The notes beneath the pieces are model-generated. The model did not search any database. It was given only the letters and a program-made list of their open reading frames with translations, and was not told where the DNA came from. From positions 15,066-79,065 of the forward strand of contig UQWK01000001.1 in NCBI GenBank assembly GCA_900544725.1: 64,000 bases of DNA, read 5' to 3'. The position numbers and the translations under genes were made by a program. How positions within the stretch are numbered: the first letter of the stretch is position 1; every line of letters begins with the position of its first letter. This document shows, piece after piece, positions 3,340 to 37,568 of the stretch. This DNA is from an uncultured Collinsella sp. Lineage in GTDB: Bacteria > Actinomycetota > Coriobacteriia > Coriobacteriales > Coriobacteriaceae.

Positions 3340-11316
<7,977 letters not shown>

Positions 11317-11396: not shown

Positions 11397-11576
11397 TGAC
11401 GAGCACGTCGGATTCCCGGAACGGGCGGCGCGGGGGTTAAGTTTGTCGCGAGTTCCGCACGAGCCGGAGAGCACTTAATGTGCTCTCCGTGTGAGTCAGG
11501 ACTGTAGAGCAGCAAACTTAACCCCCGCGCCGCCCGTTCCGGGAATCCGCTCCCGCGCACAGAAGGGGATTCCTTT
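11397..11576. repeat. Palindromic repeat element copy R2 (36-bp perfect outer inverted repeat; core gtcgcgagttccgcacgagccggagagcacttaatgtgctctccgtgtgagtcaggactgtagagcag)
   Basis: About 85% identical to R3 (13571-13751) over its whole length, with compensatory changes in the arms. Confidence 0.85.
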
Positions 11577-11578
11577 TG

Positions 11579-11603
11579 CCAAAAAGGGACAGGTTTATTT
11601 TGG
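11579..11603. repeat. 25-nt hairpin ccaaaa-agggacaggttta-ttttgg (GGGACAG-loop family); exact inverted partner at 13530-13554
   Basis: Perfect reverse complement found at 13530-13554; the two copies bracket the ECF sigma/anti-sigma cassette. Confidence 0.85.
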
Positions 11604-11701
11604 TCGGTTTTTCATGCTTGAATTTGAAACATTTCGCCCGACAAGAGCGTATCTATGGTGAGGGCCTCATCAAGAATCATTACCGTCACCGGGAGGTGAT
11701 T

Positions 11702-12220
11702 ATGGAAGAACAAGCTTTTAGACAGGCGGTCGAAGACCACCGGGATGTCGTGTTTCGGATCGCATTGACGTATCTGCGTGATCGCGCTGACGCCGACGAT
11801 GTCGCTCAAGACGTCTTTCTTAAGTTGCTCAAAAGCGACGCGCAATTTGAAAACTGGGAGCATCTTCGTCGATGGCTTATCCGGGTCACGATCAATGAAT
11901 GTAAATCTCTCTTTCGAAAGCCGTGGAGGCGCGTGGAGGATATTGAGAATCTGGCCGATTCGCTTTCGACGGCGCAGGAGGAGACCAAGGCGGTCCTGTC
12001 AGACGTTATGCGACTTCCGGAACGATTCCGTGTTCCCATCGTGCTCTATTACTATCTAGGCTTTTCGACCTCAGAGATTGCCGAGTTGTTGCATGTACCA
12101 GCCGCGACCGTTCGAACGCGTTTGGCTCGTGGCAGATCGAAGCTCAAGTTCATCCTAGAGGAGGGCGACCGTGAAATCCAATCAAATCAAGCAGGCCTTC
12201 GAGTCCGTCCAAGCCGATAG
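11702..12220 (+). CDS. ECF-family RNA polymerase sigma-70 factor
   Basis: Sigma-70 region 2 (DVAQDVFLKL...W..RV) and region 4 (SEIAELLHVPAATVRTRLARGRSKLK); RBS gggaggtga; lower GC than flanks. Confidence 0.85.
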   Translation: MEEQAFRQAVEDHRDVVFRIALTYLRDRADADDVAQDVFLKLLKSDAQFENWEHLRRWLIRVTINECKSLFRKPWRRVEDIENLADSLSTAQEETKAVLSDVMRLPERFRVPIVLYYYLGFSTSEIAELLHVPAATVRTRLARGRSKLKFILEEGDREIQSNQAGLRVRPSR

Positions 12221-13247
12221 CGATCTTGCTGACCGTGTTCTTTATGCCGCTGCTGGTGAGCCGCTTCGTCGAAAGGGTCACGCGAAGCCTCTGTATGTTG
12301 CCGTAGTTGGATGTCTTGTCGGAGTGTTGGCGACCGGAGGGGTCGCCTACGCCGTTGTCAAATCCGCCTATTTTGCCTCAGCCTGGGGAAACCACGGCAA
12401 CGGGGATTCCATCACCTGGACCAACGGCGGCTCATCGGGGACTAAATACACCTACACCAGAGAGTTTGGTGATGGCATCGCGCCCCAAAGCTTGGAGGGT
12501 TCAGTACAGAAGGTCAATCTGTCCGTCGAGGGCAACGGCTATACACTCGACATTCATGATATGGCTATCGATAAAAACGGTTGCGGTGCCGTGACGTTTA
12601 CGTTGTCCAATCCAAATGGTGTTAACTACTACAAGCCGGCAGCAGAGACTGGCGAACTTGTTCTCTATGGTGAAGAAGAACAAGGCATCGGCACGCCCAG
12701 CATGAACTTCGGCGAGGAATGGGCTGATACACGCTGCACAATTGATAAAGACACATCAAGCGACACGGTCATTAACGGCACGATGTACTTTGCCTCGTGG
12801 GATCGCGAGCGAGATTTGGGACATGCGGTCACCTGGAATATCTGCTGGACTGAGGGCGAAGGCGAGGACGCGAAGCTGTTCGAGGCATCGACGCCCGAGT
12901 TTAGCGTTGGAGCGTACGTCGATACAAAGGAACTCCGCTCCGATGACTCGCCTCTCGAGATCAGCCCGTTTTCCATCCAGACGCACATCGACGATCTGGG
13001 CATTGACGCAGTCACGAAAAAGTTGACCGTTACCTACAAGGATGGATCGGAGCAGATTATCGAAGATGACGACGCAGGGGCGTTCAACTTATATTTTTCT
13101 TATACGCGCAATAGCGGAGAGAACATCTGGGTGCCAACGAAGTTGATTGATGTCGACCAAGTGGTCTCAGTAACGCTTGAGGGCACGAGATACACATCAA
13201 CAGGAGAGACCGAAACAGAAGTACCCTTTACCATCGTCTATTCGTAA
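12171..13247 (+). CDS. Putative anti-sigma factor / membrane-anchored protein with large extracytoplasmic domain
   Basis: Immediately downstream of, and overlapping, the ECF sigma gene; single TM helix LYVAVVGCLVGVLATGGVAYAVV after a short N-terminal domain; GTG start uncertain. Confidence 0.6.
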   Translation: MKSNQIKQAFESVQADSDLADRVLYAAAGEPLRRKGHAKPLYVAVVGCLVGVLATGGVAYAVVKSAYFASAWGNHGNGDSITWTNGGSSGTKYTYTREFGDGIAPQSLEGSVQKVNLSVEGNGYTLDIHDMAIDKNGCGAVTFTLSNPNGVNYYKPAAETGELVLYGEEEQGIGTPSMNFGEEWADTRCTIDKDTSSDTVINGTMYFASWDRERDLGHAVTWNICWTEGEGEDAKLFEASTPEFSVGAYVDTKELRSDDSPLEISPFSIQTHIDDLGIDAVTKKLTVTYKDGSEQIIEDDDAGAFNLYFSYTRNSGENIWVPTKLIDVDQVVSVTLEGTRYTSTGETETEVPFTIVYS

Positions 13248-13288: not shown

Positions 13289-13529
13289 GTTATATGGACG
13301 GTTATTTTGAGCGATATTCGCCTGAATTTCGGAAGTATGCGGCAAAATCTCGATGGGTCGACCACACCGCATATGCTCAAGCGCTCTGCCTGCGGGTTTA
13401 TTATCGCAAAACCCCGGCGTGCTCGGCAGGTCCAGAATTTGCCGCATACTTCCGAAAACACCGCCAATCTACATGTGTTAGTGAGGTCGGATCGCCGCTG
13501 GAGCGTGGCATTTCCCCAGGTAAAACCTA

Positions 13530-13554
13530 CCAAAATAAACCTGTCCCTTTTTGG
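13530..13554. repeat. 25-nt hairpin ccaaaataaacctgtccctttttgg, inverted partner of 11579-11603
   Basis: Exact reverse complement of 11579-11603. Confidence 0.85.
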
Positions 13555-13570
13555 CAGGTAGCGTTGTTCC

Positions 13571-13751
13571 GACGAGCACGTCGGATTCCCGGCCCGGGCG
13601 GCCCGCTGTTTAAGTTTGTCGCGAGTTCCGCACGCAAAGGAAAGCACTTAATGTGCTTTCCGTCTTGCGCAGGACTGTAGAGCAGCAAACTTAAACAGCG
13701 GGCCGCCCGGGCCGGGAATCCGCCCCCGCGCACAGAAGGGGATTCCTTTTG
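13571..13751. repeat. Palindromic repeat element copy R3 (core with gaaagcac/gtgctttc central stem)
   Basis: Same orientation and extended similarity to R2, including flanks gacgagcacgtcgg... and ...cgcgcacagaaggggattccttttg. Confidence 0.85.
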
Positions 13752-13780: not shown

Positions 13781-13834
13781 GGGATACGCCCGGCGGCGTG
13801 GTCTGTTGACGGCACAGCTAACGGCACGTATCCT
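13781..13834 (+). promoter_or_regulatory. rpsL upstream region: motif gggatacgcccggcggcgtgg followed by candidate promoter ttgacg -N17- tatcct
   Basis: GGAYACGCCCG motif shared with regions upstream of rplC and rplB; good -35/-10 spacing. Confidence 0.45.
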
Positions 13835-13927: not shown

Positions 13928-14305
13928 TTGCCTACTATTAACCAGCTGGTTCGCCAGGGCCGTCGTTCCGTGCCCAAGAAGTCCAAGAACGCTGCTCTGC
14001 AGCACAACTCCCAGAAGCGCGGCGTGTGCACCCGCGTCTTCACCACGAGCCCCAAGAAGCCGAACTCGGCTCTTCGTAAGGTTGCCCGTGTTCGCCTTGT
14101 CAACGGCATCGAAGTTACTGCTTACATCCCGGGTGAGGGCCACAACCTGCAGGAGCACTCCATCGTGCTCGTCCGCGGCGGTCGTGTCCGTGACCTCCCT
14201 GGTGTCCGTTATCACGTCATCCGTGGCGCCTACGACGCTGCTCCGGTCCAGAACCGTATGCAGGCCCGTTCCAAGTACGGTGCTAAGCGCCCCAAGGCTA
14301 AATAA
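13928..14305 (+). CDS. rpsL: 30S ribosomal protein S12
   Basis: TTG start with RBS gaaggag; [12 protein letters not shown]... conserved. Confidence 0.95.
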
Positions 14306-17340: not shown

Positions 17341-17361
17341 GCGATATCGCTCATAGCTTAA

Positions 17362-17402
17362 AGGGCCCCGCTGCCATTATGGTAGCGGGGCCCTTTTGTT
17401 TT
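17362..17402 (+). terminator. Rho-independent terminator immediately after rpsJ
   Basis: gggccccgctgcc-atta-tggtagcggggccc followed by ttttgtttt. Confidence 0.85.
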
Positions 17403-17456
17403 GAATGGTGGCCTTGGGGGCCCGGATAATGCGGCCGAATGGGTGGCTATGGCGTC

Positions 17457-18233
17457 TTATTTACCCATGGGGCGCAGGGATGCCTCCTCAAAATGGAAGG
17501 ATCGCAAGTCGTCTTCTGTCTCGATGCACGCGCGACCAAAGTCATCGACCGTTTGAAAGATGCCAAGCGCCAGCTCGTCCCCAGCGGGGGAACGGGCGAT
17601 AACGTGATCCCCAATCCAATTGAGATGACCGATATATTCACCGTGAACGGGCGCGAGCGGTCCGGCGTCTTCCTCCATGGCGTTGAGACGCTCTGCCCAC
17701 GTGTCTACAGCGTTCACGACCGCGTGATAGACCTGCTTGAGTAGCACATCGACGGCGGGAACATTCTCGTTGAGGTCCGAGAGACCGATTGCCGGCAGGC
17801 CGCCATCGGGAACCTCCGAAGGCACATAGTTCACATTGACGCCAATGCCGCAGACGGCGAAAGGTTTGCCTTCGTTATCGCGTGCGGCCTCGACCAGAAT
17901 GCCGCCGAGCTTGCGTCCTCGCGCGACCAGATCGTTGGGCCATTTGAGGCCAATCTCGTTTGCAAGACCCTTCTTTTCGAGCGCCTCGAGCACCGCTAGG
18001 CCGCTGACGGCGGCAAGACCAGAGTACTTGGCGGGATCAACACGTGGACGCAGGACAATCGAAAGCAATAGGTTGCCGGCGGTTGAATCCCACTTGTGGC
18101 CGCGCCGGCCGCGTCCTGCTGTCTGAGCCCGGGCGGCAAGTCCTGTGCCGTGCGGCGCTCCTTGTTTTCCTGCTTCGAGCAGGTCATCGTTGGTCGATCC
18201 GGTTACGTCGACTATCGTTAATTTGGCATCCAT
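17457..18233 (-). CDS. birA: Biotin--[acetyl-CoA-carboxylase] ligase
   Basis: MDAKLTIVDVTGSTNDDL...GRGRRGHKW biotin protein ligase motif; RBS aaggagg; long ORF trimmed to internal ATG. Confidence 0.85.
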   Translation of the reverse strand: MDAKLTIVDVTGSTNDDLLEAGKQGAPHGTGLAARAQTAGRGRRGHKWDSTAGNLLLSIVLRPRVDPAKYSGLAAVSGLAVLEALEKKGLANEIGLKWPNDLVARGRKLGGILVEAARDNEGKPFAVCGIGVNVNYVPSEVPDGGLPAIGLSDLNENVPAVDVLLKQVYHAVVNAVDTWAERLNAMEEDAGPLAPVHGEYIGHLNWIGDHVIARSPAGDELALGIFQTVDDFGRACIETEDDLRSFHFEEASLRPMGK

Positions 18234-18330
18234 AGCGGCTGCTACCTCCTTAATGAATAAGTGAATAACGCAATGGTGTCGTGAGGCAGACACAATGTGA
18301 AGCCTTTGTCGCATTTGGACAATTTAATGT

Positions 18331-18396
18331 TAACACGTCAACAATGACTGAAATGCGCTATCCTCTCTTGGTCGATGTAAACACGTCAACAACTCA
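18331..18396. promoter_or_regulatory. Two direct repeats taacacgtcaacaa / taaacacgtcaacaa, 47 bp apart, in the birA-fabH divergent region (candidate operator)
   Basis: Two 14/15 matching copies just upstream of the fabH RBS. Confidence 0.4.
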
Positions 18397-18409
18397 AAGG
18401 AGGTTAGTG

Positions 18410-19369
18410 ATGGGTTTCACGATACTGGGAACAGGCTCGGCACTTCCCGAGCGCAGTGTTTCCAATGACGAGCTGTCCGAGTTCCTCGATACCTCGGATG
18501 AGTGGATTTTTACCCGCACGGGGATCAAGAGCCGCCATGTGTGCACCACCGAGTCACTCGACGACCTTGCCATGGCAGCGAGCGAGCAGGCTCTCCAGGC
18601 GTCTGGAATCGACGCGAGCCAGCTGGATCTTATCGTCTGCTCGACGACGACGGGCGACCATCTCGTTCCCGCGGAAGCGTGCGCCGTTGCCGAACGCCTG
18701 GGCGCCACATGTCCTGCCTTCGACGTTTCGGCGGCCTGTGCTGGCTTCGTATTTGCGCTCGATGTCGCCGAGGGCTATATCGCCCGCGGTCGCGCCAAGC
18801 GCGTCCTTGTCGTCGCCGCCGAGCAGATGACGCGTGCGCTCGACTGGACCGACCGCGCGACGTGCGTGCTCTTTGGTGATGGCGCGGGCGCTGCGGTCAT
18901 AGAGGCCGGGGGAGAGAACCCCCTTGCCGTCGAGCTTTCGACCGCACCCGATGTCGAGACGCTGCGTGTTCCGGGACTGGCTGGGACCTCACCGTTCAAG
19001 GATTCCGCGGACCGTGAGAGTGTGCTTTCCATGAACGGTCGTCGCGTGTTCAAGTTTGGCGTCAATGCAATCTGCGACACGGTCAACAAGCTCGCGAGTG
19101 ACACGAGTATCGCGGTTGAGGATATCGACCATTTTGTATTCCATCAGGCCAACGAACGAATCTTGAGCCAGGCGGTCAAGCGCTTGGGTGTGTCGGACGA
19201 CCGCGTGGTCCGTACGCTGCGCGAGACCGGCAATATCTCGAGCGCTTGCATTCCGCTTGCCCTCGACCGGTTGGCAAACTCCGGCGCTCTTTATCCGGGC
19301 GACACGATCGCCTTAGTCGGATTTGGCGCCGGCTTGGATATAGGTGGCTACCTGCTTCGCTGGAAGTAG
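18410..19369 (+). CDS. fabH: 3-oxoacyl-[ACP] synthase III
   Basis: 320 aa; catalytic Cys context AACAGF, His/Asn motifs; RBS aaaggagg. Confidence 0.9.
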   Translation: MGFTILGTGSALPERSVSNDELSEFLDTSDEWIFTRTGIKSRHVCTTESLDDLAMAASEQALQASGIDASQLDLIVCSTTTGDHLVPAEACAVAERLGATCPAFDVSAACAGFVFALDVAEGYIARGRAKRVLVVAAEQMTRALDWTDRATCVLFGDGAGAAVIEAGGENPLAVELSTAPDVETLRVPGLAGTSPFKDSADRESVLSMNGRRVFKFGVNAICDTVNKLASDTSIAVEDIDHFVFHQANERILSQAVKRLGVSDDRVVRTLRETGNISSACIPLALDRLANSGALYPGDTIALVGFGAGLDIGGYLLRWK

Positions 19370-19421
19370 TTGCACATAGGAAATAAAAACGCCCCCAGGG
19401 CACAAACAAAGGAGAAACACC

Positions 19422-19658
19422 ATGGCAGATCAGAAGACCTTCGAGCGCGTTTGCGACGTTATCCGCGAGACCGCCGGCCTTGACGATGTCGAGATGAAGC
19501 CCGAGTCCACGCTCGAGGAGATTGGCCTCGACAGCTTGGGCACCGTCGAGATCCTCGTCGCCGTCGAGGACGAGTTTGGCATTCAGCTCGACACCGAGGA
19601 GAACCCCAAGACGGTCGGCGAGTTTGTCGATACGGTCGAGGCGGCATTGGAGAAGTAG
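19422..19658 (+). CDS. acpP: Acyl carrier protein
   Basis: 78 aa with phosphopantetheine attachment motif LGLDSLG. Confidence 0.92.
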   Translation: MADQKTFERVCDVIRETAGLDDVEMKPESTLEEIGLDSLGTVEILVAVEDEFGIQLDTEENPKTVGEFVDTVEAALEK

Positions 19659-19660
19659 TA

Positions 19661-20605
19661 ATGCTCAAGACTCCTCTCTGCGACCTGCTTGGCATCGAAA
19701 AGCCCGTGTTCCAGGGCGGCATGGCCTGGATTGCCGATGCCTCGCTGGCATCGGCCGTGTCCGAGGCGGGTGGCCTAGGCATCATCGCGGCTATGAATGC
19801 CGATGCCAACTGGCTGCGCGACCAGATCCACGAGCTGCGCGCCAAGACGGACAAGCCCTTTGGCGTCAACGTCATGCTCATGAGCCCGTTTGCCGACGAG
19901 GTGGCACAGGTCGTGATCGATGAGCAGGTGCCCGTTGTGGTGACCGGTGCCGGCAACCCCACCAAGTACATGAAGGCTTGGAACGATGCGGGCATCAAGG
20001 TTATCCCCGTCGTGGCTTCGGTGGCGCTGGCGCGTCTCGTGGCGCGTCGGGGAGCCACTGCCGTGGTTGCCGAGGGCACTGAATCGGGTGGCCATATTGG
20101 CGAGACCTCGACGATGGCGCTTGTTCCGCAGGTTGTCGATGCGGTGGATATCCCCGTTGTGGCGGCAGGCGGCATTGCCGATGGCCGTGGCGTGGCAGCC
20201 GCCTTTATGCTGGGCGCCGCCGGCGTCCAGGTGGGCACGCGCTTTTTGGTTGCAGACGAATGTACCGTATCCGAGCAGTACAAAGAGCTGGTGCTCAAGG
20301 CAAACGACACGTCGACGCGTGCGACCGGCCGCTCAACGGGACATCCGGTGCGTGCCCTTAAGAGCCCCTTCACCAACGCCTATGCCAAGAACGAGGCTGC
20401 AGGCGCAAGCCCCGAGGAGCTTGGCGCCATGGGTACGGGTGCGCTTCGTAAGGCCGCCAAGGATGGCAATTACGAAGAGGGCTCGTATTTGTGCGGCCAG
20501 ATTGCCGGCATGGTCAAAGAGCGCCAGAGCGCGCGCGAGATCGTCGACGACCTGGTCGAAGGTGCCGAGCGCGTCTTGAAGGGTGCGTCCGCATGGGTGG
20601 CGTAG
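19661..20605 (+). CDS. fabK: Enoyl-[ACP] reductase II (FMN-dependent, nitronate monooxygenase family)
   Basis: 314 aa NPD/FabK family; position fabH-acpP-fabK as in streptococcal FASII clusters. Confidence 0.8.
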   Translation: MLKTPLCDLLGIEKPVFQGGMAWIADASLASAVSEAGGLGIIAAMNADANWLRDQIHELRAKTDKPFGVNVMLMSPFADEVAQVVIDEQVPVVVTGAGNPTKYMKAWNDAGIKVIPVVASVALARLVARRGATAVVAEGTESGGHIGETSTMALVPQVVDAVDIPVVAAGGIADGRGVAAAFMLGAAGVQVGTRFLVADECTVSEQYKELVLKANDTSTRATGRSTGHPVRALKSPFTNAYAKNEAAGASPEELGAMGTGALRKAAKDGNYEEGSYLCGQIAGMVKERQSAREIVDDLVEGAERVLKGASAWVA

Positions 20606-21519
20606 CGTTTCTGTTTGCCGGCCAGGGTGCCCAGCATCCCGAGATGGGCGTCGACCTCATCGAAGCATCGCCGGCGGCCGCCGAGGTGTTCGCGATCGCC
20701 GACGAGGTGCGCCCGGGGACCAGTGAACAGTGCCGGAGCGCCTCTAAGGAGGAGCTGTCGCAGACCGAGAACACACAGCCTTGCGTGTTCGTGCACGACT
20801 TGGCCGTCGCCGCTGCCCTACGCGAGCGCGGCGTGGTGCCTGCCGCCTGTGCGGGCTTCTCGCTGGGCGAGGTCGCCGCACTCACCTTTGCGGGGGCATT
20901 CGATACGCGAGCGGGTTTTGAGCTCGTGTGCGAGCGCGCGGCGCTGATGTCCGCGGCTGCCGAGCGCCATCCGGGCGGTATGCGCGCCGTTATCAAGCTC
21001 GATGCGGCACAGGTTGAGAGCCTGGCCGCACAGGCCGGCGAGGACTGCTGGCCGGTCAACTTCAACAGCCCGCAACAGACGGTTGTAGCCGGAACGCCCG
21101 AGACACTCCAGGAGCTCGACGTCCTGGTAAAAGAGGCTGGCGGCCGTGCGATGAAGGTTGCGGTGTCGGGTGCGTTCCATAGCCCCTATATGGCAGAGGC
21201 GACTGAGGGGCTGGCGACGTATATCCAAGCCGGCCACGCGCCGTCTCCGCTGCTCATTCCGGTTGTGGCAAACATGACGGCGGCGCCCTATCCGGCGGAC
21301 CCCCAAGCGGCATCGGAGGTCCTGGCCAACCAGGCGAGCCATGCCGTGCGCTGGGTTGACACGCTGCACACTCTGCAGGATCAGGGCATCGATACGTTTA
21401 TTGAGGTCGGCCCCGGTAAAACGCTGTCCGGCCTGGTCAAGCGTACGTTGAGCGATGTTCGCGTGTATTCGTGCGAAACGGCCGAGCAGGTCGCAGCTAT
21501 TGCCGACGAGCTCGCATAG
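20593..21519 (+). CDS. fabD: Malonyl CoA-ACP transacylase
   Basis: AFLFAGQGAQ...GFSLGE active-site serine motif; overlaps fabK 3-prime end. Confidence 0.9.
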   Translation: MGGVAFLFAGQGAQHPEMGVDLIEASPAAAEVFAIADEVRPGTSEQCRSASKEELSQTENTQPCVFVHDLAVAAALRERGVVPAACAGFSLGEVAALTFAGAFDTRAGFELVCERAALMSAAAERHPGGMRAVIKLDAAQVESLAAQAGEDCWPVNFNSPQQTVVAGTPETLQELDVLVKEAGGRAMKVAVSGAFHSPYMAEATEGLATYIQAGHAPSPLLIPVVANMTAAPYPADPQAASEVLANQASHAVRWVDTLHTLQDQGIDTFIEVGPGKTLSGLVKRTLSDVRVYSCETAEQVAAIADELA

Positions 21520-21549
21520 CCCACAGGGCTGTAACCCGAAAGGAACGAC

Positions 21550-22323
21550 ATGGGCAACATGAACAACGGCGCGCTCGAGCGCAACGACACACGTCGGGTG
21601 GCGCTCGTTACGGGCGGCTCGCGCGGCATCGGTCGCGCTTGTGCCGTGGGCCTGGCGGAGGATGGCTACGATGTCGCCGTCATCTATGCCGGCAGCGCCG
21701 ATGCAGCGCGCGAGACGTGCGAAGCCTGCGAGGCGGCTGGCGCCACGGCGCGCGCATATCAATGCGACGTGGCCGACCCCGCTGCCGTCAACGCATGCGT
21801 GGAAGCGGTCCTGAGCGACTTCGGCTCGATCTGGGCGCTCGTCAACAACGCCGGCATCACCTGCGATGGCCTGCTTATGCGCATGGGCGACGATGCGTTC
21901 GATCGCGTACTCAATGTCAATCTCAAGGGCACGTTCAACACGACACGCGCGCTCACCAAGACTTTTATGCGCCAGCGCGGCGGTTGCGTCATCAACATGA
22001 GCTCGGTCGTGGGCCTGATGGGCAATGCCGGACAGGTCAATTACGCCGCCTCCAAGGCGGGCGTTATCGGCCTGACCAAGGCGGTGGCGCGCGAACTTGC
22101 GCCTCGCGGCGTGAGGGCTAACGCGGTCGCCCCCGGGTTTGTCGAGACCGATATGACGGCAACGCTTTCGGAGAAGGTACGCACGGCGTGTGAGGAGCAG
22201 ATTCCCCTCAAGCGCATGGCGCGTCCCGAGGAAGTGGCCGGCGTGGTGCGCTTTTTGGCAAGCGATGCGGCGGCCTACATTACGGGCGAGGTCGTGCGCG
22301 TCGATGGCGGAATGGCGATGTAG
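21550..22323 (+). CDS. fabG: 3-oxoacyl-[ACP] reductase
   Basis: SDR: TGGSRGIGRA, NAG, YAASKAG motifs. Confidence 0.9.
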   Translation: MGNMNNGALERNDTRRVALVTGGSRGIGRACAVGLAEDGYDVAVIYAGSADAARETCEACEAAGATARAYQCDVADPAAVNACVEAVLSDFGSIWALVNNAGITCDGLLMRMGDDAFDRVLNVNLKGTFNTTRALTKTFMRQRGGCVINMSSVVGLMGNAGQVNYAASKAGVIGLTKAVARELAPRGVRANAVAPGFVETDMTATLSEKVRTACEEQIPLKRMARPEEVAGVVRFLASDAAAYITGEVVRVDGGMAM

Positions 22324-22364
22324 AAATTAGAGCCGGCACATACATCGGCTTGGATGAGGAGACC

Positions 22365-23615
22365 ATGATGGAACAGAGAGTTGCAATCACCGGCATCGGC
22401 GCTGTATCGCCGCTCGGCAACACCGCGCTTGCCACCTGGGCGGCCATGTGCGCCGGTACGTGTGGCGTCGGCCAGATCACGCACTTCGATACCGACGCGT
22501 TTGCCGTCAAGGTAGCGGCCGAGGTCAAGGGCTTTGACGGTACCGAGTACTTTGGCAAGCGTGACGCCAAGCATCTCGACCCCTGCGTTCAGTTTGCGAT
22601 GGCGGCTTCGGACGAGGCCATGCACGACGCAGGACTCGATGCCGAAGGCGCGATCGACCACGAGCGCCTTGGCGTGTACGTGGGATCGGGCGTGGGCGGC
22701 ATGACGACGCTCGTCGACAACGTCCACACGATTGCCGATCGCGGACCCCGCCGCGCATCGCCTTACATGATCGCGATGATGATCCCCAACATGGCTTCGG
22801 GCAATATTGCGATCCGCCACAAGGCAAAGGGTCCGACCCTGCCCGTCGTGACTGCTTGCGCGACCTCGGCCCATGCGGTGGGTGAGGCGTTCCGTGCTAT
22901 CAAGCACGGTTATGCCGACGCGATCCTTGCGGGCGGTGCCGAGGCGGCTATCATCCCCGACGCCGTTGCGGGCTTTACGTCCTGCCGTGCGCTTACCACC
23001 AACCCCGATCCGCAGTCGGCGTGTCGTCCGTTCGATGCGAACCGCGACGGCTTTGTGATGGGCGAAGGCGCCTGCGTGCTCGTGCTCGAGGGTATGGAGC
23101 ACGCACAGGCCCGCGACGCGCACATTTACGCCGAGGTCGTGGGCTACGGCAACACCGATGATGCCTATCACATCACGAGCCCCGATCCCGAGGCTGCCGG
23201 CATTGCCCGCGCGATATCGCTGGCGGTGGCCGAGGGCGACGTCAAGCCTTCCGAGGGTCTCTACATCAACGCTCACGGCACCTCGACCAAGCTCAACGAT
23301 TCGTCCGAGACGGCGGGCATTAAGCGAGCGCTTGGCGAGGATGCGGCGCGCGCCGCGCACGTCTCGTCGACTAAGTCGATGACCGGGCACATGATCGGTG
23401 CCACGGGCGCCATCGAGGTCATGGCCTGTGCCATGGCACTCGAACAGGGCGTGGTGCCGCCGACCATTAACTACAGCACGCCCGATCCCGCCTGCGATCT
23501 TGACTACACGCCCAATCGCGCGGTTCGCGCCGACCTTACCTGGGCGCTTTCGACCAACCTGGGCTTTGGCGGCCACAACGCCGCCATCGCGCTGCGCAAA
23601 TATACAAGGAGCTAG
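22365..23615 (+). CDS. fabF: 3-oxoacyl-[ACP] synthase II
   Basis: KAS II family; ORF opens at TTG 22350, ATG 22365 preferred (RBS gaggag). Confidence 0.9.
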   Translation: MMEQRVAITGIGAVSPLGNTALATWAAMCAGTCGVGQITHFDTDAFAVKVAAEVKGFDGTEYFGKRDAKHLDPCVQFAMAASDEAMHDAGLDAEGAIDHERLGVYVGSGVGGMTTLVDNVHTIADRGPRRASPYMIAMMIPNMASGNIAIRHKAKGPTLPVVTACATSAHAVGEAFRAIKHGYADAILAGGAEAAIIPDAVAGFTSCRALTTNPDPQSACRPFDANRDGFVMGEGACVLVLEGMEHAQARDAHIYAEVVGYGNTDDAYHITSPDPEAAGIARAISLAVAEGDVKPSEGLYINAHGTSTKLNDSSETAGIKRALGEDAARAAHVSSTKSMTGHMIGATGAIEVMACAMALEQGVVPPTINYSTPDPACDLDYTPNRAVRADLTWALSTNLGFGGHNAAIALRKYTRS

Positions 23616-23618
23616 AGC

Positions 23619-24092
23619 ATGGATTCCAAAAGACTTGCCGAGATAGCCGATGTTATGGAGGACCGCGGCCTCACGCGCGTGCGCGTGGAGGAGCCCGATG
23701 GCACCGCGGTCGAACTTGAGCGCGCGAGTGCCGCGCAGCCGGTTGCCGTGCCCATGCCCATGCCGAGCGCTATGGCTGCTCCGGTTGCGGCGCCCGCAGC
23801 TGCGCCTGCCGCGCCGGAACCTGCCGCGCAAGCGCCCACTGCCGCACCGGAGCCCAAGGGCGTCGAGGTCACGGCTCCCATGGTGGGCGTCTTCTATGCC
23901 GCCCCGGCGCCGGGCGACGAGCCGTTCGTGCGCGTGGGCTCCAAGGTCAAGGCCGGCGAGACCCTCTGCATCATCGAGGCCATGAAGGTTCTCAACGAGG
24001 TAACGGCAGAGGCGGATGGCGAGGTGCTCGAGATTTGCGTGGCCGACGGCGACCTCGTGGAGTTTGGCAGCTGCCTCATGAGAATCGGATAG
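23619..24092 (+). CDS. accB: Biotin carboxyl carrier protein of acetyl-CoA carboxylase
   Basis: Ala/Pro-rich linker and biotinylation motif EAMKV. Confidence 0.9.
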   Translation: MDSKRLAEIADVMEDRGLTRVRVEEPDGTAVELERASAAQPVAVPMPMPSAMAAPVAAPAAAPAAPEPAAQAPTAAPEPKGVEVTAPMVGVFYAAPAPGDEPFVRVGSKVKAGETLCIIEAMKVLNEVTAEADGEVLEICVADGDLVEFGSCLMRIG

Positions 24093-24101
24093 GTGATATC
24101 C

Positions 24102-24524
24102 ATGAACAAAGAAGAGCTTAAAGAACTGTTGCCGCATCGCGAGCCGATGCTTTTGCTCGACGAGGCCGAGCTGGTGGGCGATGAGGCCCACGGCAAGATC
24201 ACGATTGCGGGCGATGAGTACTTTTTGCAGGGGCACTTTCCGGGAAACCCGGTCGTGCCCGGCGTGATCCAGTGCGAGATGCTCGCCCAAAACTGCTGCG
24301 TGCTGCTGATGGGCGATGAGGAAGCGCGTGGTGCGACGCCGTTCTACACGAGCCTGGACAAGGTGCGTTTTAAGCGTCCGGTGCGCCCGGGCGACACGGT
24401 GGACCTGGTGTGCTCGATCACCCGTGCGCGCGGGCCGTTCCGCTTTGCGACGGGTACTGCGAGCGTCAACGGTGAGGTTTGCTGCCGCGCCGATATGTCC
24501 TTTGCGCTCGTGCACGAAAGTTAA
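24102..24524 (+). CDS. fabZ: 3-hydroxyacyl-[ACP] dehydratase
   Basis: Hotdog fold; LLPHREPMLLLD and GHFPGNPVVPGV motifs. Confidence 0.9.
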   Translation: MNKEELKELLPHREPMLLLDEAELVGDEAHGKITIAGDEYFLQGHFPGNPVVPGVIQCEMLAQNCCVLLMGDEEARGATPFYTSLDKVRFKRPVRPGDTVDLVCSITRARGPFRFATGTASVNGEVCCRADMSFALVHES

Positions 24525-24534
24525 GGAAGGCTTC

Positions 24535-25878
24535 ATGTTCGACAAAGTGCTCATCGCCAATCGCGGCGAGGTCGCGGTCCGTGTTATCCGCGCGTGCCGC
24601 GATATGGGCATCAAGACCGTTGCCGTCTATTCCACGGCCGATGCGGACGCACTGCACGTGCAGCTTGCCGACGAGGCATACTGCATCGGCGGCCCACGTC
24701 TTGCCGAGAGCTACCTCAACGACGATGCCGTGCTCACCTGCGCCGTAAAGTCGGGAGCTAAGGCAATCCATCCCGGCTATGGCTTCTTTTCCGAAAAGGC
24801 GAGCTTTGTGCGCGATTGCGACAAGTATGGCCTGACGTTTGTCGGCCCCTCGGCCGAGGTGATCGACAGCATGGGCGACAAGGATGCGGCGCGCCGAACG
24901 GCTGCCGCCGCGGGCGTGCCCATCGTGCCGGGCTGCGATTTGCTCAAGAGCCCCGAGGAGGCGACGGCCGAGGCCGAGCGTATTGGCTGCCCCGTGCTCA
25001 TCAAGGCGCGCGCGGGCGGCGGCGGCCGCGGCATCCGCAAGGTCGAGCGCGTGGAAGATGCGGCAAAGGCTTTTATTGAAGCACGCGCCGAGGGCGAGGC
25101 CGTTTTTGGCGACGGCGAGTGCTACATGGAAAAGTTCGTCGCGCCGGCGCATCACGTTGAGGTGCAGATTATGGCCGATAAGCAGGGCCATGTGTTTTCG
25201 CTCGGCGAACGCGAGTGCTCGGTGCAGCGCCGCAACCAAAAGCTGATCGAGGAGAGTCCCGCGCCGTGCCTCGACGGACACGACGACATTCGCGCGCGCA
25301 TGCACAAGGCGGCGCGTGACCTGGCTCGTGCCGTCGGCTACGAAGGAGCCGGTACCATCGAGTTCCTGTATTCGGACGACGGCAATTTCTACTTTATGGA
25401 AATGAACACGCGCTTGCAGGTGGAGCATCCGGTTACGGAGTTTGTGACCGATACCGACTTGGTCAAGTGGCAGCTGCGCGTGGCAGCCGGCCAGCCTCTG
25501 CCCTTTGAGCAGGAGGACATGCCGGTCCGCAACCACGCCATGGAGTGCCGCATCAATGCCGAAACGCCGGACTTTCTGCCGTCATGCGGAACGGTCACCA
25601 CGTTGCGCGTGCCGGGTGGTCCGCGCGTGCGCTGGGATTCGGCCATGTTCACCGGTGCGACAGTTCCGCCGTACTACGACTCCATGCTCGGCAAGCTCAT
25701 CGTGTGTGCGCCCACGCGTGACGGCGCCATTCGCAAGATGCGCTCGGCCCTGGGCGAGCTCGTGATTGAGGGCGTGAGCGAAAACAGCGAGCTTCAGCTC
25801 GACGTGCTGGCAAACGACGAGTTCTTGTCGGGCATGTATCACACCGATCTGATGGGGCATCTCTATGCTGATGAATAG
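24535..25878 (+). CDS. accC: Acetyl-CoA carboxylase biotin carboxylase subunit
   Basis: MFDKVLIANRGEVAVRVIRA... ATP-grasp; 447 aa. Confidence 0.93.
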   Translation: MFDKVLIANRGEVAVRVIRACRDMGIKTVAVYSTADADALHVQLADEAYCIGGPRLAESYLNDDAVLTCAVKSGAKAIHPGYGFFSEKASFVRDCDKYGLTFVGPSAEVIDSMGDKDAARRTAAAAGVPIVPGCDLLKSPEEATAEAERIGCPVLIKARAGGGGRGIRKVERVEDAAKAFIEARAEGEAVFGDGECYMEKFVAPAHHVEVQIMADKQGHVFSLGERECSVQRRNQKLIEESPAPCLDGHDDIRARMHKAARDLARAVGYEGAGTIEFLYSDDGNFYFMEMNTRLQVEHPVTEFVTDTDLVKWQLRVAAGQPLPFEQEDMPVRNHAMECRINAETPDFLPSCGTVTTLRVPGGPRVRWDSAMFTGATVPPYYDSMLGKLIVCAPTRDGAIRKMRSALGELVIEGVSENSELQLDVLANDEFLSGMYHTDLMGHLYADE

Positions 25879-27589
25879 AAAAGCGAAGACGGTCAATGTC
25901 CTTGAGGGGCCGATAACCGAGTCGTGCGCCGAGTTTCCCGCGCGCCACGTGTTTATCAAGTGCCCGGAGTGCCGCCGTGTGATCGATGAGGCACGCCTAC
26001 ACGACAACCTCGAGGTCTGCCCTCGTTGCGGCAAACACTTTCGCGTGAGCGGTCGCGCGCGCATGCGCATGACGGTCGACGAGGGCACGTTTGAGGAATG
26101 GGATGCCAATCTGGCGTCGGAGGATTTCCTCTCGTTTCCCGGCTATGCCGACAAGCTCAAGAGCGTGAGCGAGCGTTCGGGCGAGCGCGACGCCGTTGTG
26201 TGCGGCAGGGGCAAAATCTGCGGTTGCGATACCGCGTTCTTCTTTATGGACGCCAACTTTATGATGGGCTCGATGGGTTCCGTGGTGGGCGAGAAGATCT
26301 GTCGCACATTTGAGCGTGCGACCGAGCTGGGATTGCCAGTTGTCGGCTTTACCGTTTCGGGCGGTGCGCGCATGCAAGAGGGCGTGACATCGCTTATGCA
26401 GATGGCCAAGATTTCTGCGGCGGTTAGGCGCCACAGCGAGGCGGGTGGCCTGTATATCACGGTGCTCACCGACCCCACGACCGGAGGCGTAACCGCGAGC
26501 TTCGCCATGGAGGGCGACATTATCCTGGCCGAGCCCGATGCCCTGACGGCATTTGCCGGCCCGCGCGTGATCGAGCAGAACATGCACAAGCGCCTGCCCA
26601 AGGGATTCCAGCGCTCCGAGTTTTTGCTGGAGCACGGCTTTTGCGATGCCGTTGTTCCGCGCGGCGAGATTGCGCTCACGGTAGGCGAGCTGCTGGCGCT
26701 GCACGAAGGGCACGCGCCCGGCTTGGGGGCACCGCATGAGATCGTGCATACGGGTCGCCGCGGCAAAAAGCTGGGGCACTTGTTCAAGCGCGCGGCGGCG
26801 CCAAAAACCGCGCTCGAGATTGTCAAGCAGACCCGCTCGGCAGATCGCGCCACGGCGGGCGAGGTGATCTCGCTGGGCCTGGATGGATTTGTGGAGCTGC
26901 ACGGCGACCGTTACTTTGGCGACGACGCCGCTGTGGTGGCTGGCATTGGCTGGAAGGACGGGCGCCCCGTAACGGTCATCGCCATCGAGCGCGGCACCAC
27001 GACCAAAGAGCGTATGCGCCGCAACTTTGGCATGGCGCATCCCGAGGGCTACCGTAAAGCGCGTCGCCTGATGCGCCAAGCCGAAAAGTTTGGTCGGCCG
27101 GTTCTGTGCCTGGTCGATACTTCGGGCGCGTTTTGCGGCATCGGTGCCGAGGAGCGCGGCCAGGGCGAGGCGATTGCCCAGAATCTCATGGAGATGAGCG
27201 GCCTTAAGACGCCGATTGTCTCGGTGGTAACAGGCGAGGGCGGCTCTGGTGGCGCGCTGGCGCTGTCCGTGGCCGACCGCATCCTGATGCTCTCGAGCTC
27301 GGCCTATTCGGTCGTGAGCCCCGAGGCCTGTGCGTCGATTCTGTGGAAGGATACCGAGCGCGCGAATGAGGCCGCCGAGGCGCTTAAGCTCACGGCTCCC
27401 GATCTGTTGGCGCTCGGTATCATCGACGGCATTGTTGACGATAGGGGTCTGTCGCATGAGGAGATCGCCGGCGCCGTCATGTCCTCGGCATTTGATGCCT
27501 TCGATACGCTTGGGCGGCTCGACGACGCGACCCTCACAAACCTCCGCTACGAAAAGTACCGCGCAATCGGTCAGTATCGCACGATGTGA
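25865..27589 (+). CDS. accD: Acetyl-CoA carboxylase carboxyltransferase, fused beta (AccD) and alpha (AccA) subunits
   Basis: N-terminal AccD zinc ribbon CPECRRV...CPRCGKHF, followed by an AccA-like domain in a single 574-aa ORF. Confidence 0.85.
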   Translation: MLMNRKAKTVNVLEGPITESCAEFPARHVFIKCPECRRVIDEARLHDNLEVCPRCGKHFRVSGRARMRMTVDEGTFEEWDANLASEDFLSFPGYADKLKSVSERSGERDAVVCGRGKICGCDTAFFFMDANFMMGSMGSVVGEKICRTFERATELGLPVVGFTVSGGARMQEGVTSLMQMAKISAAVRRHSEAGGLYITVLTDPTTGGVTASFAMEGDIILAEPDALTAFAGPRVIEQNMHKRLPKGFQRSEFLLEHGFCDAVVPRGEIALTVGELLALHEGHAPGLGAPHEIVHTGRRGKKLGHLFKRAAAPKTALEIVKQTRSADRATAGEVISLGLDGFVELHGDRYFGDDAAVVAGIGWKDGRPVTVIAIERGTTTKERMRRNFGMAHPEGYRKARRLMRQAEKFGRPVLCLVDTSGAFCGIGAEERGQGEAIAQNLMEMSGLKTPIVSVVTGEGGSGGALALSVADRILMLSSSAYSVVSPEACASILWKDTERANEAAEALKLTAPDLLALGIIDGIVDDRGLSHEEIAGAVMSSAFDAFDTLGRLDDATLTNLRYEKYRAIGQYRTM

Positions 27590-27605
27590 CAAAGGGACAG
27601 TCCGC

Positions 27606-28844: not shown

Positions 28845-28993
28845 ACCTGTGCGACAAAAGGACGATCCCTTTGTCGTGTTCCAAGGCCGTGGCTCGTGTG
28901 GGCTGCGGCCTTTTGTATCTTGAGGACAAAGTGGCTACACTACAATCCGTTTGAGCAATAGATATATAGGTAGTACCGTGGGGGCGGATGTAG

Positions 28994-30148: not shown

Positions 30149-30187
30149 GGCTGCGCCGGCAAAGCAAGTTATACAGAAGGGGAGAGC

Positions 30188-30814: not shown

Positions 30815-30850
30815 CCTGAGCGAGCAAGGTTTAGCAGACATCAACGTGGC

Positions 30851-31013
30851 GTTCCCAGTGTGCGGCGGAGGGGGCGGGCCTGAGACATATTAAGGTTGCT
30901 GCTCTACAGTCCTGCTCACGACGGAGAGCACATTAAGTGCTCTCCTGTTCGTGCGGAACTCGCGACAACCTTAATATGTCTCAGGCCCGCCCCCTCCGCC
31001 GCACACTGGGAAC
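30851..31013. repeat. Palindromic repeat element copy R4 (inverted orientation; 48-bp perfect outer arms gttcccagtgtgcggcggagggggcgggcctgagacatattaaggttg)
   Basis: Core ggagagcacattaagtgctctcc plus ctgctctacagtcctg equals reverse complement of the R2 core. Confidence 0.85.
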
Positions 31014-31063
31014 GTGCCACGCACTTTACCTGCGTAAACAATGTGAGTGAAATATGAATCTCG

Positions 31064-31089
31064 ATGGATACGCCCGCAGCCGTGTATAC
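31064..31089 (+). promoter_or_regulatory. Motif atggatacgcccgcagccgtgtatac upstream of rplC (candidate promoter/operator)
   Basis: Matches 32929-32954 at 22 of 26 positions and shares GGAYACGCCCG with 13781-13802. Confidence 0.4.
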
Positions 31090-31282
31090 TAATCAGCTGT
31101 GTGTAACCAGGGGAGTATTCTGGCTGGACAAAATGCCTGCTTAATAGGGTTGTCAGGTAGTCCAGGCGAAATACAAGGCTGGGGAGCACGTCGTGTAAGT
31201 AGTGGTCCTCTAGGGGCGTACGCTCGGTGGTGTACGCATTGTCCCAAGACCACGCGAGAGTTGGGATCATATCTTGATCAGC

Positions 31283-31894
31283 ATGATTCTCGGCCGCAAG
31301 ATTGGCATGACCCAGGTTTGGGACGAGGACGACAACGTCGTTCCCGTCACGGTCATCCAGGCTGGCCCCTGCGCTGTCTCGCAGGTTAAAACTCAGGCAA
31401 CCGACGGCTATGACGCCGTCCAGATCGGTTTCGGCGACATCAAGGCCAAGAACGTGAACAAGCCCATGGCTGGTCACTTCGCCAAGGCTGGCGTCGAGCC
31501 TGTCCGCTTCCTTCGTGAGGTCCGCGTCGAGAACGGCGAGGAGCACAAGGTCGGCGAGGTCGTCACCGTCGCTGATTTCGCTGATGTCGAGAAGGTCGAC
31601 GTCATCGGTACCTCCAAGGGTAAGGGCTTCCAGGGTCGCATCAAGCGCTGGGGTCAGCGCCGCGGTCCTATGACGCATGGTTCTCACTTCCAGCGTCACC
31701 CCGGTTCTATCGGTCAGTGCGCCTATCCTGCGCGCGTCCTCAAGGGCGTCAAGATGGCCGGTCACATGGGTAACGAGCGCGTTACCGTCAAGAACCTTTC
31801 CGTTGTCCGCATCGATGCCGAGCAGAACCTCATCTTGGTCAAGGGCGCTGTCCCGGGTGCCAAGAATGGTCTCGTCGCCATCCGTATGGCCTAA
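31283..31894 (+). CDS. rplC: 50S ribosomal protein L3
   Basis: [11 protein letters not shown]... conserved; ORF opens at TTG 31274, ATG 31283 preferred. Confidence 0.93.
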
Positions 31895-32855: not shown

Positions 32856-32881
32856 GACTCGCTGCTGTTGAGTGAGCTCAT

Positions 32882-32954
32882 GCCTCCCAAATAGGGGAGG
32901 CGAGAGCTCAAGGTTTTGGGCGTATAAAATGGACACGCCCGGAACCGTGTATAC
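32882..32954 (+). promoter_or_regulatory. Hairpin gcctccc-aaata-gggaggc, then motif atggacacgcccggaaccgtgtatac, in an unusual 179-bp rplW-rplB gap
   Basis: Second copy of the 26-nt motif found upstream of rplC. Confidence 0.4.
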
Positions 32955-33034
32955 GTCCGGTGTCATCGCACCCGAGGCAGAACCTCGAATCCCTGTCTGC
33001 GATGGCTAACGGATTCCTATTGAAAGGGATTGTA

Positions 33035-33865
33035 ATGGCTGTAAAGCACCTTAAGCCGACCTCCGCTGGTAGGCGTTGGCAGACGATCTCCGATTTCTCC
33101 GAGATCACCTGCACCAAGCCCGAGAAGTCTCTTCTCGAGCCCCTGCCCAAGAAGGCCGGTCGTAACAACAACGGCCGCATCACCACCCGCCACCAGGGCG
33201 GCGGCGTGAAGCGTCGTTACCGCGTGATCGACTTCAAGCGCAACAAGGACGGCGTGCCCGCCAAGGTTGCCACGATCGAGTACGATCCGAACCGTTCCGC
33301 TCGCATCGCTCTGCTGCACTACGCTGACGGTGAGAAGCGCTACATCCTGGCCCCCAAGGGCCTCGAGGTCGGTCAGACCATCATGTCCGGTTCTGACGCC
33401 GACATCAAGCCGGGCAACGCTCTGCCCCTCGCCGACATCCCCGTCGGTACGCTCATCCACGCCGTCGAGTTCCAGCCGGGCAAGGGCGCCGCAATCGCCC
33501 GTTCCGCCGGTAACTCCTGCCAGCTGATGGGTAAGGAGGGCAAGTACGCTATCGTCCGTATGCCTTCCTCCGAGATGCGCCGCATCCTCGTTACCTGCCG
33601 CGCCACCGTCGGTGAGGTCGGCAACGCCGATCACGCCAACATCGTCATCGGCAAGGCCGGCCGTAAGCGTCACATGAACGTGCGCCCGACCGTCCGCGGT
33701 ACCGTCATGAACCCTGTCGACCACCCGCACGGCGGTGGCGAGGGCAAGAACCACACCTCTGGTCGTCCCTCCGTTACCCCCTGGGGTAAGCCGACGAAGG
33801 GCCTTCGTACGCGCAAGAAGAAGAAGGTCTCGAACCAGCACATCATTCGTCGCCGTAAGAAGTAA
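33035..33865 (+). CDS. rplB: 50S ribosomal protein L2
   Basis: [14 protein letters not shown]... conserved; long ORF trimmed to internal ATG. Confidence 0.93.
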
Positions 33866-37062: not shown

Positions 37063-37090
37063 GCTGCCCGCAACATCAAGTTGCTAGCAA

Positions 37091-37126
37091 AGGCCCGGAT
37101 GCCCCTCGGCATCCGGGCCTTTTTCT
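37091..37126 (+). terminator. Rho-independent terminator after rplX
   Basis: aggcccggatgcc-cctc-ggcatccgggcct followed by ttttct. Confidence 0.85.
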
Positions 37127-37131
37127 ATCCC

Positions 37132-37324
37132 CACTCATTGGGGACAGACTTAAATGAGTGGCCGTTGATTGGCAGTCATTGGGGACAGACTTAAATGACT
37201 AGTCGTTTGGGACGTTCTTAAACGACTAGTTGATAGGGACGGTCTTTAGATCTGTATATCTGGCCATCTAGGATAGGCTTCAACGAAAGCGGCACCTAGG
37301 GACAGTTCTTTGATGTCTGGTGCC
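37132..37324 (+). repeat. Tandem array of five hairpins with variable stems and conserved loop GGGAC(A/G)G-NN-CTT(A/T)A
   Basis: U1 cactcatt-ggggacagactta-aatgagtg; U2 cagtcatt-ggggacagactta-aatgact; U3 agtcgttt-gggacgttctta-aacgact; U4 gatagggacggtctttagatctg; U5 ggcacc-tagggacagttctttgatgtct-ggtgcc. Confidence 0.8.
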
Positions 37325-37568
37325 CCCAGAGGGGTGAAGTAATACAGCTGGCTCTGTCTTTAGGGCTTTGGTGCTCCGCCCCTATATGTTTCACAAGGAT
37401 TGTCGCATGCGCATTTACGCGCAGAGTCTTGCGCGATGATGCGCATTGCCGCGCAAATATCTGCTAACTATGGTTAAATAATGACCGATAAACAAATAAA
37501 CACGCAAATACAAGCAAAAGCGCGCGCAATTGTGCGAATATAGGGCTGTTAGAAATGAAGGACTTCCG

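Follow-up and report, generated by a model that had tools for sequence, protein, structure and literature searches.

WhiA is a monomeric transcription factor of Gram-positive bacteria that combines a helix-turn-helix (HTH) domain resembling sigma region 4 with a homing-endonuclease-like domain, and it has been reported in most Gram-positive bacteria. Fisunov et al. 2024 described a core, GAYACRCY, in the rpsJ-operon promoters of phyla that carry whiA, accompanied by a clade-specific downstream motif, the core being more G+C-rich in G+C-rich genomes (PMC11701221). Binding of Mycoplasma gallisepticum WhiA to the core was demonstrated by EMSA and MST, while modelling, mutagenesis and FRET placed the HTH on the core and the endonuclease-like domain on the auxiliary motif; this protein represses and responds to ATP (PMC11701221). 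A supplementary table of that study gives CGACACGCCCGACCGCGTGGG for Streptomyces coelicolor and similar sites in Micrococcus, Kytococcus and mycobacteria, and Coriobacteriia are absent from its supplementary files (PMC11701221). In Mycobacterium tuberculosis, ChIP-seq and in vitro IDAP-seq yielded the WhiA motif GACACGCC and a regulon enriched for ribosome genes, the rpsJ operon included (PMC13473873). ChIP-seq in Streptomyces venezuelae yielded GACAC, with targets including infA, efp, rpsH, rpsJ and rpsA, the expression of which is reduced in a whiA mutant (PMC3781837). By cryo-EM, the C-terminal domain of WhiA was seen to occupy GACAC immediately before the -35 element, and the orientation and spacing of WhiA sites differ between promoters (PMC10243135). 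Activation by WhiA requires WhiB in Streptomyces, and WhiB-family genes are reported absent from Coriobacteriales. WhiA is conserved across Gram-positive bacteria, and its role outside Streptomyces, Mycobacterium and Mycoplasma has been described as unknown. The WhiA literature that we searched held no explicit statement of its presence in Coriobacteriales, and a search for the motif string described below and for Coriobacteriia ribosomal promoters returned nothing relevant.

The 64-kb stretch of Collinsella DNA analysed here (the window) carries rplJ-rplL, rpoB, rpoC, an ECF sigma/anti-sigma pair and rpsL-rpsG-fusA-rpsJ, followed, beyond a 13.7 kb insertion between rpsJ and rplC, by rplC-rplD-rplW and by rplB through rplX. 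This gene order indicates that an ancestral str/S10 cluster has been split into three pieces, each of which starts with one copy of a 21-nt box (Table 1). Three exact matches to the 11-mer GGAYACGCCCG occur in the window, all intergenic and on the plus strand, preceding rpsL, rplC and rplB; 0.24 would be expected by chance, and none of 100 dinucleotide-preserving shuffles of the window contained three or more. An earlier note on this DNA had quoted these three strings at the positions where we find them and had described the 11-mer as a core common to three ribosomal-operon starts, as the exact matches bear out. Several of its details needed correction. The common form is GGAYACGCCCG-N4-CGTG, with a gap of four nucleotides in all three copies rather than four to six, and the dyad at rplB reads ACACG-N8-CGTGT instead of ACACG-N9-CGTGT. 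The distance from box to gene, given as 150 to 220 nt, is correct for rplC (208 nt) and too long for rpsL (146 nt) and rplB (104 nt).

Table 1 Features at the three str/S10 pieces of the window (positions are those of the window)
Feature	Position	Strand	Remarks
Large hairpin about 60 nt upstream of the rpsL box	13582..13722		37-nt arms, 100% complementary
Putative WhiA-type box before rpsL, GGATACGCCCGGCGGCGTGGT	13782..13802	+	29.4 bits; conserved in L001-L005
Parts of the rpsL box	core GATACGCC 13783-13790; downstream half CGTG 13797-13800	+	
Predicted rpsL promoter	13806..13834	+	TTGACG 13806-13811, 17-nt spacer, TATCCT 13829-13834; consensus scan
rpsL, first gene of rpsL-rpsG-fusA-rpsJ	13928..14305	+	TTG start; Pfam Ribosom_S12_S23
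Large hairpin about 50 nt upstream of the rplC box	30850..31014		49-nt arms, 100% complementary
Putative WhiA-type box before rplC, GGATACGCCCGCAGCCGTGTA	31066..31086	+	25.8 bits
Parts of the rplC box	core GATACGCC 31067-31074; CGTG 31081-31084	+	
TATACT, probable -10 of the rplC promoter	31085..31090	+	inferred from homology with the Atopobiaceae promoter
rplC, first gene of rplC-rplD-rplW	31274..31894	+	TTG start; Pfam Ribosomal_L3; homologues 206 aa
Small G+C-rich hairpin following the rplW stop, some 20 nt before the rplB box	32874..32909	+	
Putative WhiA-type box before rplB, GGACACGCCCGGAACCGTGTA	32931..32951	+	27.9 bits
Parts of the rplB box	core GACACGCC 32932-32939; CGTG 32946-32949	+	
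TATACG, -10-like hexamer at rplB, role doubtful	32950..32955	+	hexamer not conserved
Conserved rplB leader helix	32956..33013	+	TCCGGTGTC (32956-32964) with GGC...CGGA (33004-33013); RNAalifold
rplB, first gene of the rplB...rpsQ run	33035..33865	+	ATG start; ORF frame; tblastn and Pfam names in related loci

The box was then scored with a 21-nt weight matrix built from related sites. The three copies, with a G+C content of 71-76%, are the best sites of the window; the runner-up reaches 14.8 bits, and the top site in 1.28 Mb of shuffled window 16.0 bits. The annotated first 39.5 kb, which contains all of the window's ribosomal operons, has intergenic GAYACGCC at the three box cores only. Matrix and core scans of the window found no box upstream of rplJ, rpoB or rplN.

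Conservation was analyzed in the surroundings of RplC homologues from Coriobacterium glomerans, whose RplC is 89% identical to that of the window, and from two other lineages. The box is kept at the same three intergenic positions in all of these, within diverged flanks, and the consensus is (t)AT-GGATACGCCCGG-NNN-CGTG(G/T). More broadly, other Coriobacteriaceae and Atopobiaceae keep the 21-nt box at the three positions, so that the conservation in related genomes called for by the earlier note is present at orthologous intergenic sites in other genera. Orthologues of the rplC box were found in L001-L005, L062, L101 and L109, and those of the rplB box in L001-L005, L019, L049, L123 and L197. 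The rpsL box is conserved in about 80 Coriobacteriia loci among the matches listed, and dozens of Collinsella assemblies share an identical rpsL region.

Two pattern scans, both requiring the long form of the box, extended the comparison. The first covered one genome per species with the pattern GGATACGCCCGGNNNCGTG and gave at least 120 matches. Among the 120 listed, 74 lie upstream, on the same strand, of translation genes: rpsL (67), tRNA-tuf (4) and, for the rest, rplM, rpsA or rplB. These sites come from Collinsella, Olsenella, Atopobium, Tractidigestivibacter, Slackia, Eggerthellaceae, Eggerthellales, Coriobacteriales and a few deeper Actinomycetota assemblies. Another 43 of the 120 fall inside long open frames, mostly of unrelated phyla, by a crude test that may misfile a few Coriobacteriia sites (L019 and L021, for example), and 3 are cut by a contig end. 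The second scan, of metagenomes with a pattern ending in CGTGT, also gave at least 120 matches; those listed include at least 23 sites before tRNA-tuf, at least 12 before rpsL and at least 3 before rplM, as well as sites before rplU, rpmJ-rpsM (after infA), rpsJ (with two tandem boxes) and rplB. Across Coriobacteriia, the genes found behind the box are thus rpsL, tRNA-tuf, rplM-rpsI, rpsA, rplU, rpmJ-rpsM, rpsJ, rplC and rplB, and nearly all intergenic matches listed sit upstream of a translation gene. By the tallies of both scans, enrichment upstream of translation genes, on which the earlier note's regulatory reading had been made to depend, holds for the pattern-selected matches listed. The tandem boxes at rpsJ (L235, minus strand, about 215-275 from the start of the reverse complement) belong to a more distant lineage and lie about 200 nt upstream of a TATAAT promoter.

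The matches inside coding sequence raise the question of whether the box repeats by chance, is left over from a GTPase gene or forms a short leader ORF. The 19-nt search pattern coincides with the codons for DTPGHVDF, the switch-II segment of EF-G/LepA-type translational GTPases (GAT ACG CCC GGC CAC GTG GAC), in many phyla, and the box itself, read as ATG GAT ACG CCC GG. ..C GTG, would encode M-D-T-P-G-x-V, with two window copies starting with ATG. Against this, the box is conserved at non-coding positions across genera, the ATG is replaced by ATA, GTA, GGG or AGG, and neither a Shine-Dalgarno sequence nor a conserved downstream reading frame accompanies it, while the shuffles and matrix scores exclude chance. 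We therefore consider all three explanations extremely unlikely. A leader ORF of the form MDTPG.V was discarded for its variable start codon and missing ribosome-binding site; the DTPGHVDF codons account for many coding matches and leave the conserved intergenic sites unexplained. Matches of the DTPGHVDF type, which we take as coincidence, are L020, L037, L053, L080, L083, L085, L086, L102, L105, L110, L111, L116, L120 and L068; in the last (minus strand, offset 4414), the match, of 22 bits, lies in the organism's own fusA, at a distance of 1.3 kb downstream from the rpsL box.

The sequence of the box points to WhiA. All three window cores conform to GAYACRCY or to GACACGCC, matching the published WhiA motifs at 8 of 8 positions. 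Like the rpsJ-operon site of Fisunov et al. 2024, with which it shares this 8-nt core (GATACGCC or GACACGCC), the box has a second conserved block 6-7 nt downstream of the core and a location at ribosomal operons, and the Actinomycete entries in their table align with it over 21 nt (PMC11701221). The downstream block, CCCG-N4-CGTG(G/T), is present in all Coriobacteriia sites and is in register with the S. coelicolor, M. luteus and Kytococcus rpsJ sites GACACGCCCGACCGCGTGG, as would be expected of a clade-specific auxiliary block. Aligned on the matrix, the S. coelicolor site CGACACGCCCGACCGCGTGGG and the rpsL box are identical at 16 of 21 positions in the same register; the published Actinomycete sites score only 9-16.5 bits, because they differ at positions 1, 4 and 12. 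The placement at the promoter or 5' end of a translation operon is also kept in relatives.

Differences from the described systems concern number, position and partners. The window has three sites in 20 kb, with rpsJ itself lacking a box, as opposed to one site in the published rpsJ-operon survey (PMC11701221). The Mollicutes site, 22-40 nt beyond the transcription start, has the auxiliary motif GTTGT and mediates repression by WhiA, whereas the window rpsL site is upstream of the -35 element (PMC11701221). The M. tuberculosis and S. venezuelae regulons likewise feature GACACGCC or GACAC and translation-gene targets, with WhiA acting as both activator and repressor and the motif occurring in both orientations; unlike the Coriobacteriia sites, they are dominated by cell-division and replication genes, and the ChIP reports contain no conserved downstream half (PMC13473873, PMC3781837). 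The recovered Coriobacteriia sites all adjoin translation genes, in searches whose patterns required the long box form.

Taken together, the orthologous conservation, the translation-gene scans and the match to the published WhiA site support the operator option of the earlier note, which had left open whether the motif was a common promoter architecture or the operator of a coordinating regulator. We consider it likely, judging from sequence, that the three boxes are WhiA operators for ribosomal-protein operons, with the identity of the binding protein deduced from other species. The box is real and conserved, and since it is most likely a WhiA site, it represents a new example of a known regulatory site and not a new kind of element.

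The alternative that comes nearest is that the box is the site of another Coriobacteriia-specific factor, or a G+C-rich upstream element read by RNA polymerase, which boosts strong translation-gene promoters and resembles the WhiA core by coincidence. The whiA gene is not among the genes of the window, and neither a motif search nor tblastn with the WhiA proteins of Thermotoga maritima and M. gallisepticum found it in the compared loci, which, like the window, cover small parts of their genomes. The latter probe matches T. maritima WhiA only at E = 2e-4 and is thus too divergent to be useful. The promoter geometry also gives this alternative some appeal. Relative to the predicted TTGACG-17-TATCCT promoter, which the box abuts at rpsL in place of a TATAC(T/G) hexamer, the box lies at about -59 to -39; a TTGACA-17-TAnnnT promoter is conserved across genera at this gene, and near-consensus versions follow the box at rpsL, tuf, rplM, rplU and rpsA. 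At rpsL, tuf and rplM, the box is thereby in the position of an UP element, at about -40 to -60.

Among the matches listed, the gap between box and -35 element is 3-6 nt in 68 distinct promoters, 15-16 nt in 10 and 26-27 nt in 3; at five Atopobiaceae rplC loci, with diverged spacers, it is 45-46 nt. No gap between these four classes was seen among the promoters listed. The steps approximate one helical turn, so that, as seen from RNA polymerase, the box would always be on one side of the helix, a pattern that is suggestive and not a statistic, since the promoters are themselves related. Most spacers of 15-16 nt are A/T-rich and resemble an UP element inserted between box and -35. In six loci (L140, L146, L147, L191, L229 and L243), the G+C-rich box stands as an island in A/T-rich DNA, and in this group it lies 26-27 nt upstream of a TTGACA-17-TAATAT rpsL promoter.

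Upstream elements at whole-helical-turn distances are familiar from E. coli, as the UP element and Fis sites of rRNA promoters and as class I CRP sites. UP elements are A/T-rich and read by the alpha-CTD, and Fis and CRP sites are dyads. The Coriobacteriia box shares the spacing of such activator sites, a similarity of working and not of membership; the analogy is functional only, as the sequence and the presumed protein are unrelated. An UP element in the strict sense was set aside: the box fits that position at rpsL, is G+C-rich and is located elsewhere in other promoters. Extracytoplasmic-function (ECF) promoters have the spacing GGAAC-N16-17-CGT, and sigma-54 promoters read TGGCAC-N5-TTGC. 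Both were rejected as identities of the box, in which only 9 nt separate GGATAC from CGTG and a TTGC block is missing.

Another parallel is the Streptomyces sepX complex of WhiA, WhiB and RNA polymerase, where an asymmetric box also lies just upstream of a sigma-A -35 element, with the factor on the polymerase-facing side and the alpha-CTD further upstream (PMC10243135). WhiB bridges to sigma region 4 in that complex (PMC10243135); with WhiB-family genes reported absent from Coriobacteriales, contact there would have to be direct or through another partner. Reading of the box by some other factor or directly by RNA polymerase, which its place on one helical face at gaps of 3-6, 15-16 and 26-27 nt would allow, appears unlikely. 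UP elements are A/T-rich and the box is not; it matches the WhiA core completely and carries the downstream half of the Actinomycete rpsJ sites in register; and its placement varies, as it overlaps the rplC promoter of the window, lies 45 nt upstream at rplC of Atopobiaceae and is inverted in the leader of L019. The complete core match and the variable placement speak for WhiA.

At rplC and rplB, the box is arranged differently. The earlier note had reported TATAC(T/G) fused to the box in two cases and taken it as -10-like; the hexamers are indeed there, TATACT at rplC and TATACG at rplB, and the -10 role is supported for the former and doubtful for the latter. The window sequence GTGTATACTAatCAGCTG is homologous to the -10/start region of the Atopobiaceae promoter TTGTGA-17-TA(A/T)A(C/T)T-AGACAGGCTG, so TATACT is probably the rplC -10, although no -35 could be recognised for it. 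If so, the box probably occupies about -31 to -11, over the spacer and the place of the -35. A promoter in the same register as at rpsL, TAATCA-17-GAGTAT, was considered for rplC and dropped in favour of TATACT, which aligns with the Atopobiaceae -10; GAGTAT lies in an 'AGGGGA' block that aligns with the transcribed leader of Atopobiaceae. At the position of the rplB hexamer, relatives have GTAATC, GTAAAT, GTTGTC or GATAAA. A conserved leader helix (TCCGGYGTC with GGC..CGGA), in which 2 pairs are changed on both sides in an RNAalifold alignment of 6 sequences, begins 1 nt after TATACG, too near for a start driven by the hexamer; the rplB start site is therefore expected in or before the box. 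This helix has no match to an Rfam family and is a candidate L2-operon leader.

One Atopobiaceae lineage, represented by L019 (box at 7265-7285 on the plus strand of that locus) and L205, has an inverted rplC box within the leader: a TTGTGA-17-TATACT promoter precedes it, with a predicted start about 35-55 nt upstream of the box. This inversion in L019 agrees with the variable orientation of WhiA sites (PMC10243135). Directly before the rplC start of the window (about 31200-31270) is a strongly conserved, structured segment, GTGGTCC, a variable hairpin with compensating changes, and GTCCCAAGACCAC-CGAGAGTTGGGA, found in 6 of 6 aligned lineages. It matches no Rfam family and is a candidate ribosomal-protein leader.

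These structured leaders, which come after the box at rplC and rplB, invite the explanation that the box acts as RNA, as part of a leader that is bound by a ribosomal protein or folds into an attenuator; at rplB, and in the rplC leader of L019, transcription probably includes the box. At rpsL, tuf, rplM, rplU and rpsA, however, it lies upstream of the -35 of the sole recognisable promoter, and from the promoter positions it is predicted to be outside the rpsL and tuf transcripts. The only structure that the box adopts in the alignment at rplB is a 3-bp stem, invariant and without covariation, single-sequence folds are inconsistent, and the box has no Rfam match at gathering or E-value thresholds. 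A role as RNA is accordingly very unlikely, and classification as a ribosomal-protein leader RNA was rejected on its position upstream of the promoter at rpsL, tuf and rplM and on the absence of covariation.

Returning to WhiA as the probable binder, we propose a mechanism modelled on the published cases. The core GAYACGCC would be read by the HTH domain, and the downstream half, CCCGG-N3-CGTG(G/T), would serve as the clade-specific auxiliary motif contacted by the second domain, an assignment of domains to half-sites carried over from other species. With a box of its own on each str/S10 piece, rpsL-rpsG-fusA-rpsJ, rplC-rplD-rplW and rplB...rpsQ could all be coordinated by one factor, together with other translation operons. 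At rpsL, where the box immediately precedes the -35 and keeps to one side of the helix, the factor would contact RNA polymerase and probably activate. The arrangements at rplC, over the -35 and spacer of the TATACT promoter, and at rplB, where a structured leader starts at the box or shortly after it, would be more typical of repression, as seen in Mycoplasma; in each case, the sign of regulation is judged from box geometry. The Mollicutes mechanism is not simply transferable, as the site there is downstream of the transcription start and here is mostly upstream of the -35.

A more far-reaching and tentative reading, which we regard as possible but doubtful as a whole, is that WhiA is a WhiB-independent, single master switch of ribosome synthesis in Coriobacteriia. 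Under this joint reading, WhiA alone would be a phase-locked upstream activator of nearly the whole translation apparatus (rpsL-fusA-rpsJ, tRNA-tuf, rplM, rplU, rpsA and the alpha operon) in Coriobacteriia, which are reported to lack WhiB, would cover the core promoter of the split S10 pieces rplC and rplB, and might sense ATP, as in Mycoplasma. If true, this switch would be a Gram-positive counterpart of growth-rate control of the Fis/UP type. At the more modest level, the data suggest a role for WhiA in Collinsella, a very abundant human-gut genus, and across its class, where the long form of the WhiA-type box marks the promoters of many translation operons. Helically phased boxes in a lineage reported to lack WhiB provide a concrete case for how WhiA might tie ribosome production to the state of the cell in the absence of its Actinomycete partner. 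For annotation, the 21-nt box may serve as a specific marker of highly expressed translation-gene promoters in Coriobacteriia.

The interruptions of the str/S10 cluster were also compared with relatives. Between rpsJ and rplC (17341-31273), the window carries birA, a fatty-acid synthesis cluster led by fabH-acpP-fabK, whose downstream ORFs are unannotated, a cation-efflux gene and a histidine phosphatase. In relatives, this gap holds only the last one or two of these genes or is empty, and insertions upstream of the rplC box seem to be tolerated. The ribosomal cluster ends after rplX (37063-37530 and beyond), with an oxidoreductase and a DeoR regulator following, and relatives likewise break the cluster there. 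The genes rplE, rpsN, rpsH and the remaining spc operon are absent from the window, and the sequence beyond the window, upstream of rplJ, holds no further translation genes. The ECF sigma factor (11576-12220) and the DUF4179 anti-sigma-like gene (12171-13247) between rpoC and rpsL are bounded by 40-nt inverted repeats (11577-11616 and 13517-13556, 93% complementary). Two 204-nt direct repeats, 84% identical, enclose the pair, and each contains a hairpin element; relatives have other genes or none at this spot, and the segment 11375-13751 looks like an inserted cassette.

The hairpin elements belong to a family of five very large hairpins (419-548, 11409-11549, 13582-13722, 30850-31014 and about 61200-61330), two of which sit just upstream of WhiA-type boxes. 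Members have a conserved core of about 65 nt (GTCGCGAGTTCCGCACG..GGAGAGCACTTAATGTGCTCTCC..CAGGACTGTAGAGCAG) between arms of 33-49 nt; the arms differ between copies and are 97-100% complementary within each of four copies, no arm pair being reported for the copy at about 61200-61330. The hairpin at 30850-31014 has a folding energy of -146 kcal/mol (z = -19), and Rfam returned only spurious miRNA or SRP matches for the long hairpins. The family may consist of mobile hairpin elements or of structured RNAs, and termination or insulation is a possible function of the copy before the rpsL box. At the position of the small hairpin at the end of rplW, relatives have a hairpin of other sequence. Elsewhere in the window, a SAM riboswitch is predicted on the minus strand at 57527-57617 (45.1 bits against a gathering score of 44.4 bits), and on that strand its 5' side is immediately preceded by three tandem 33-nt repeats (CGGAAAAGTGTCGAAATC...) at 57737-57835.
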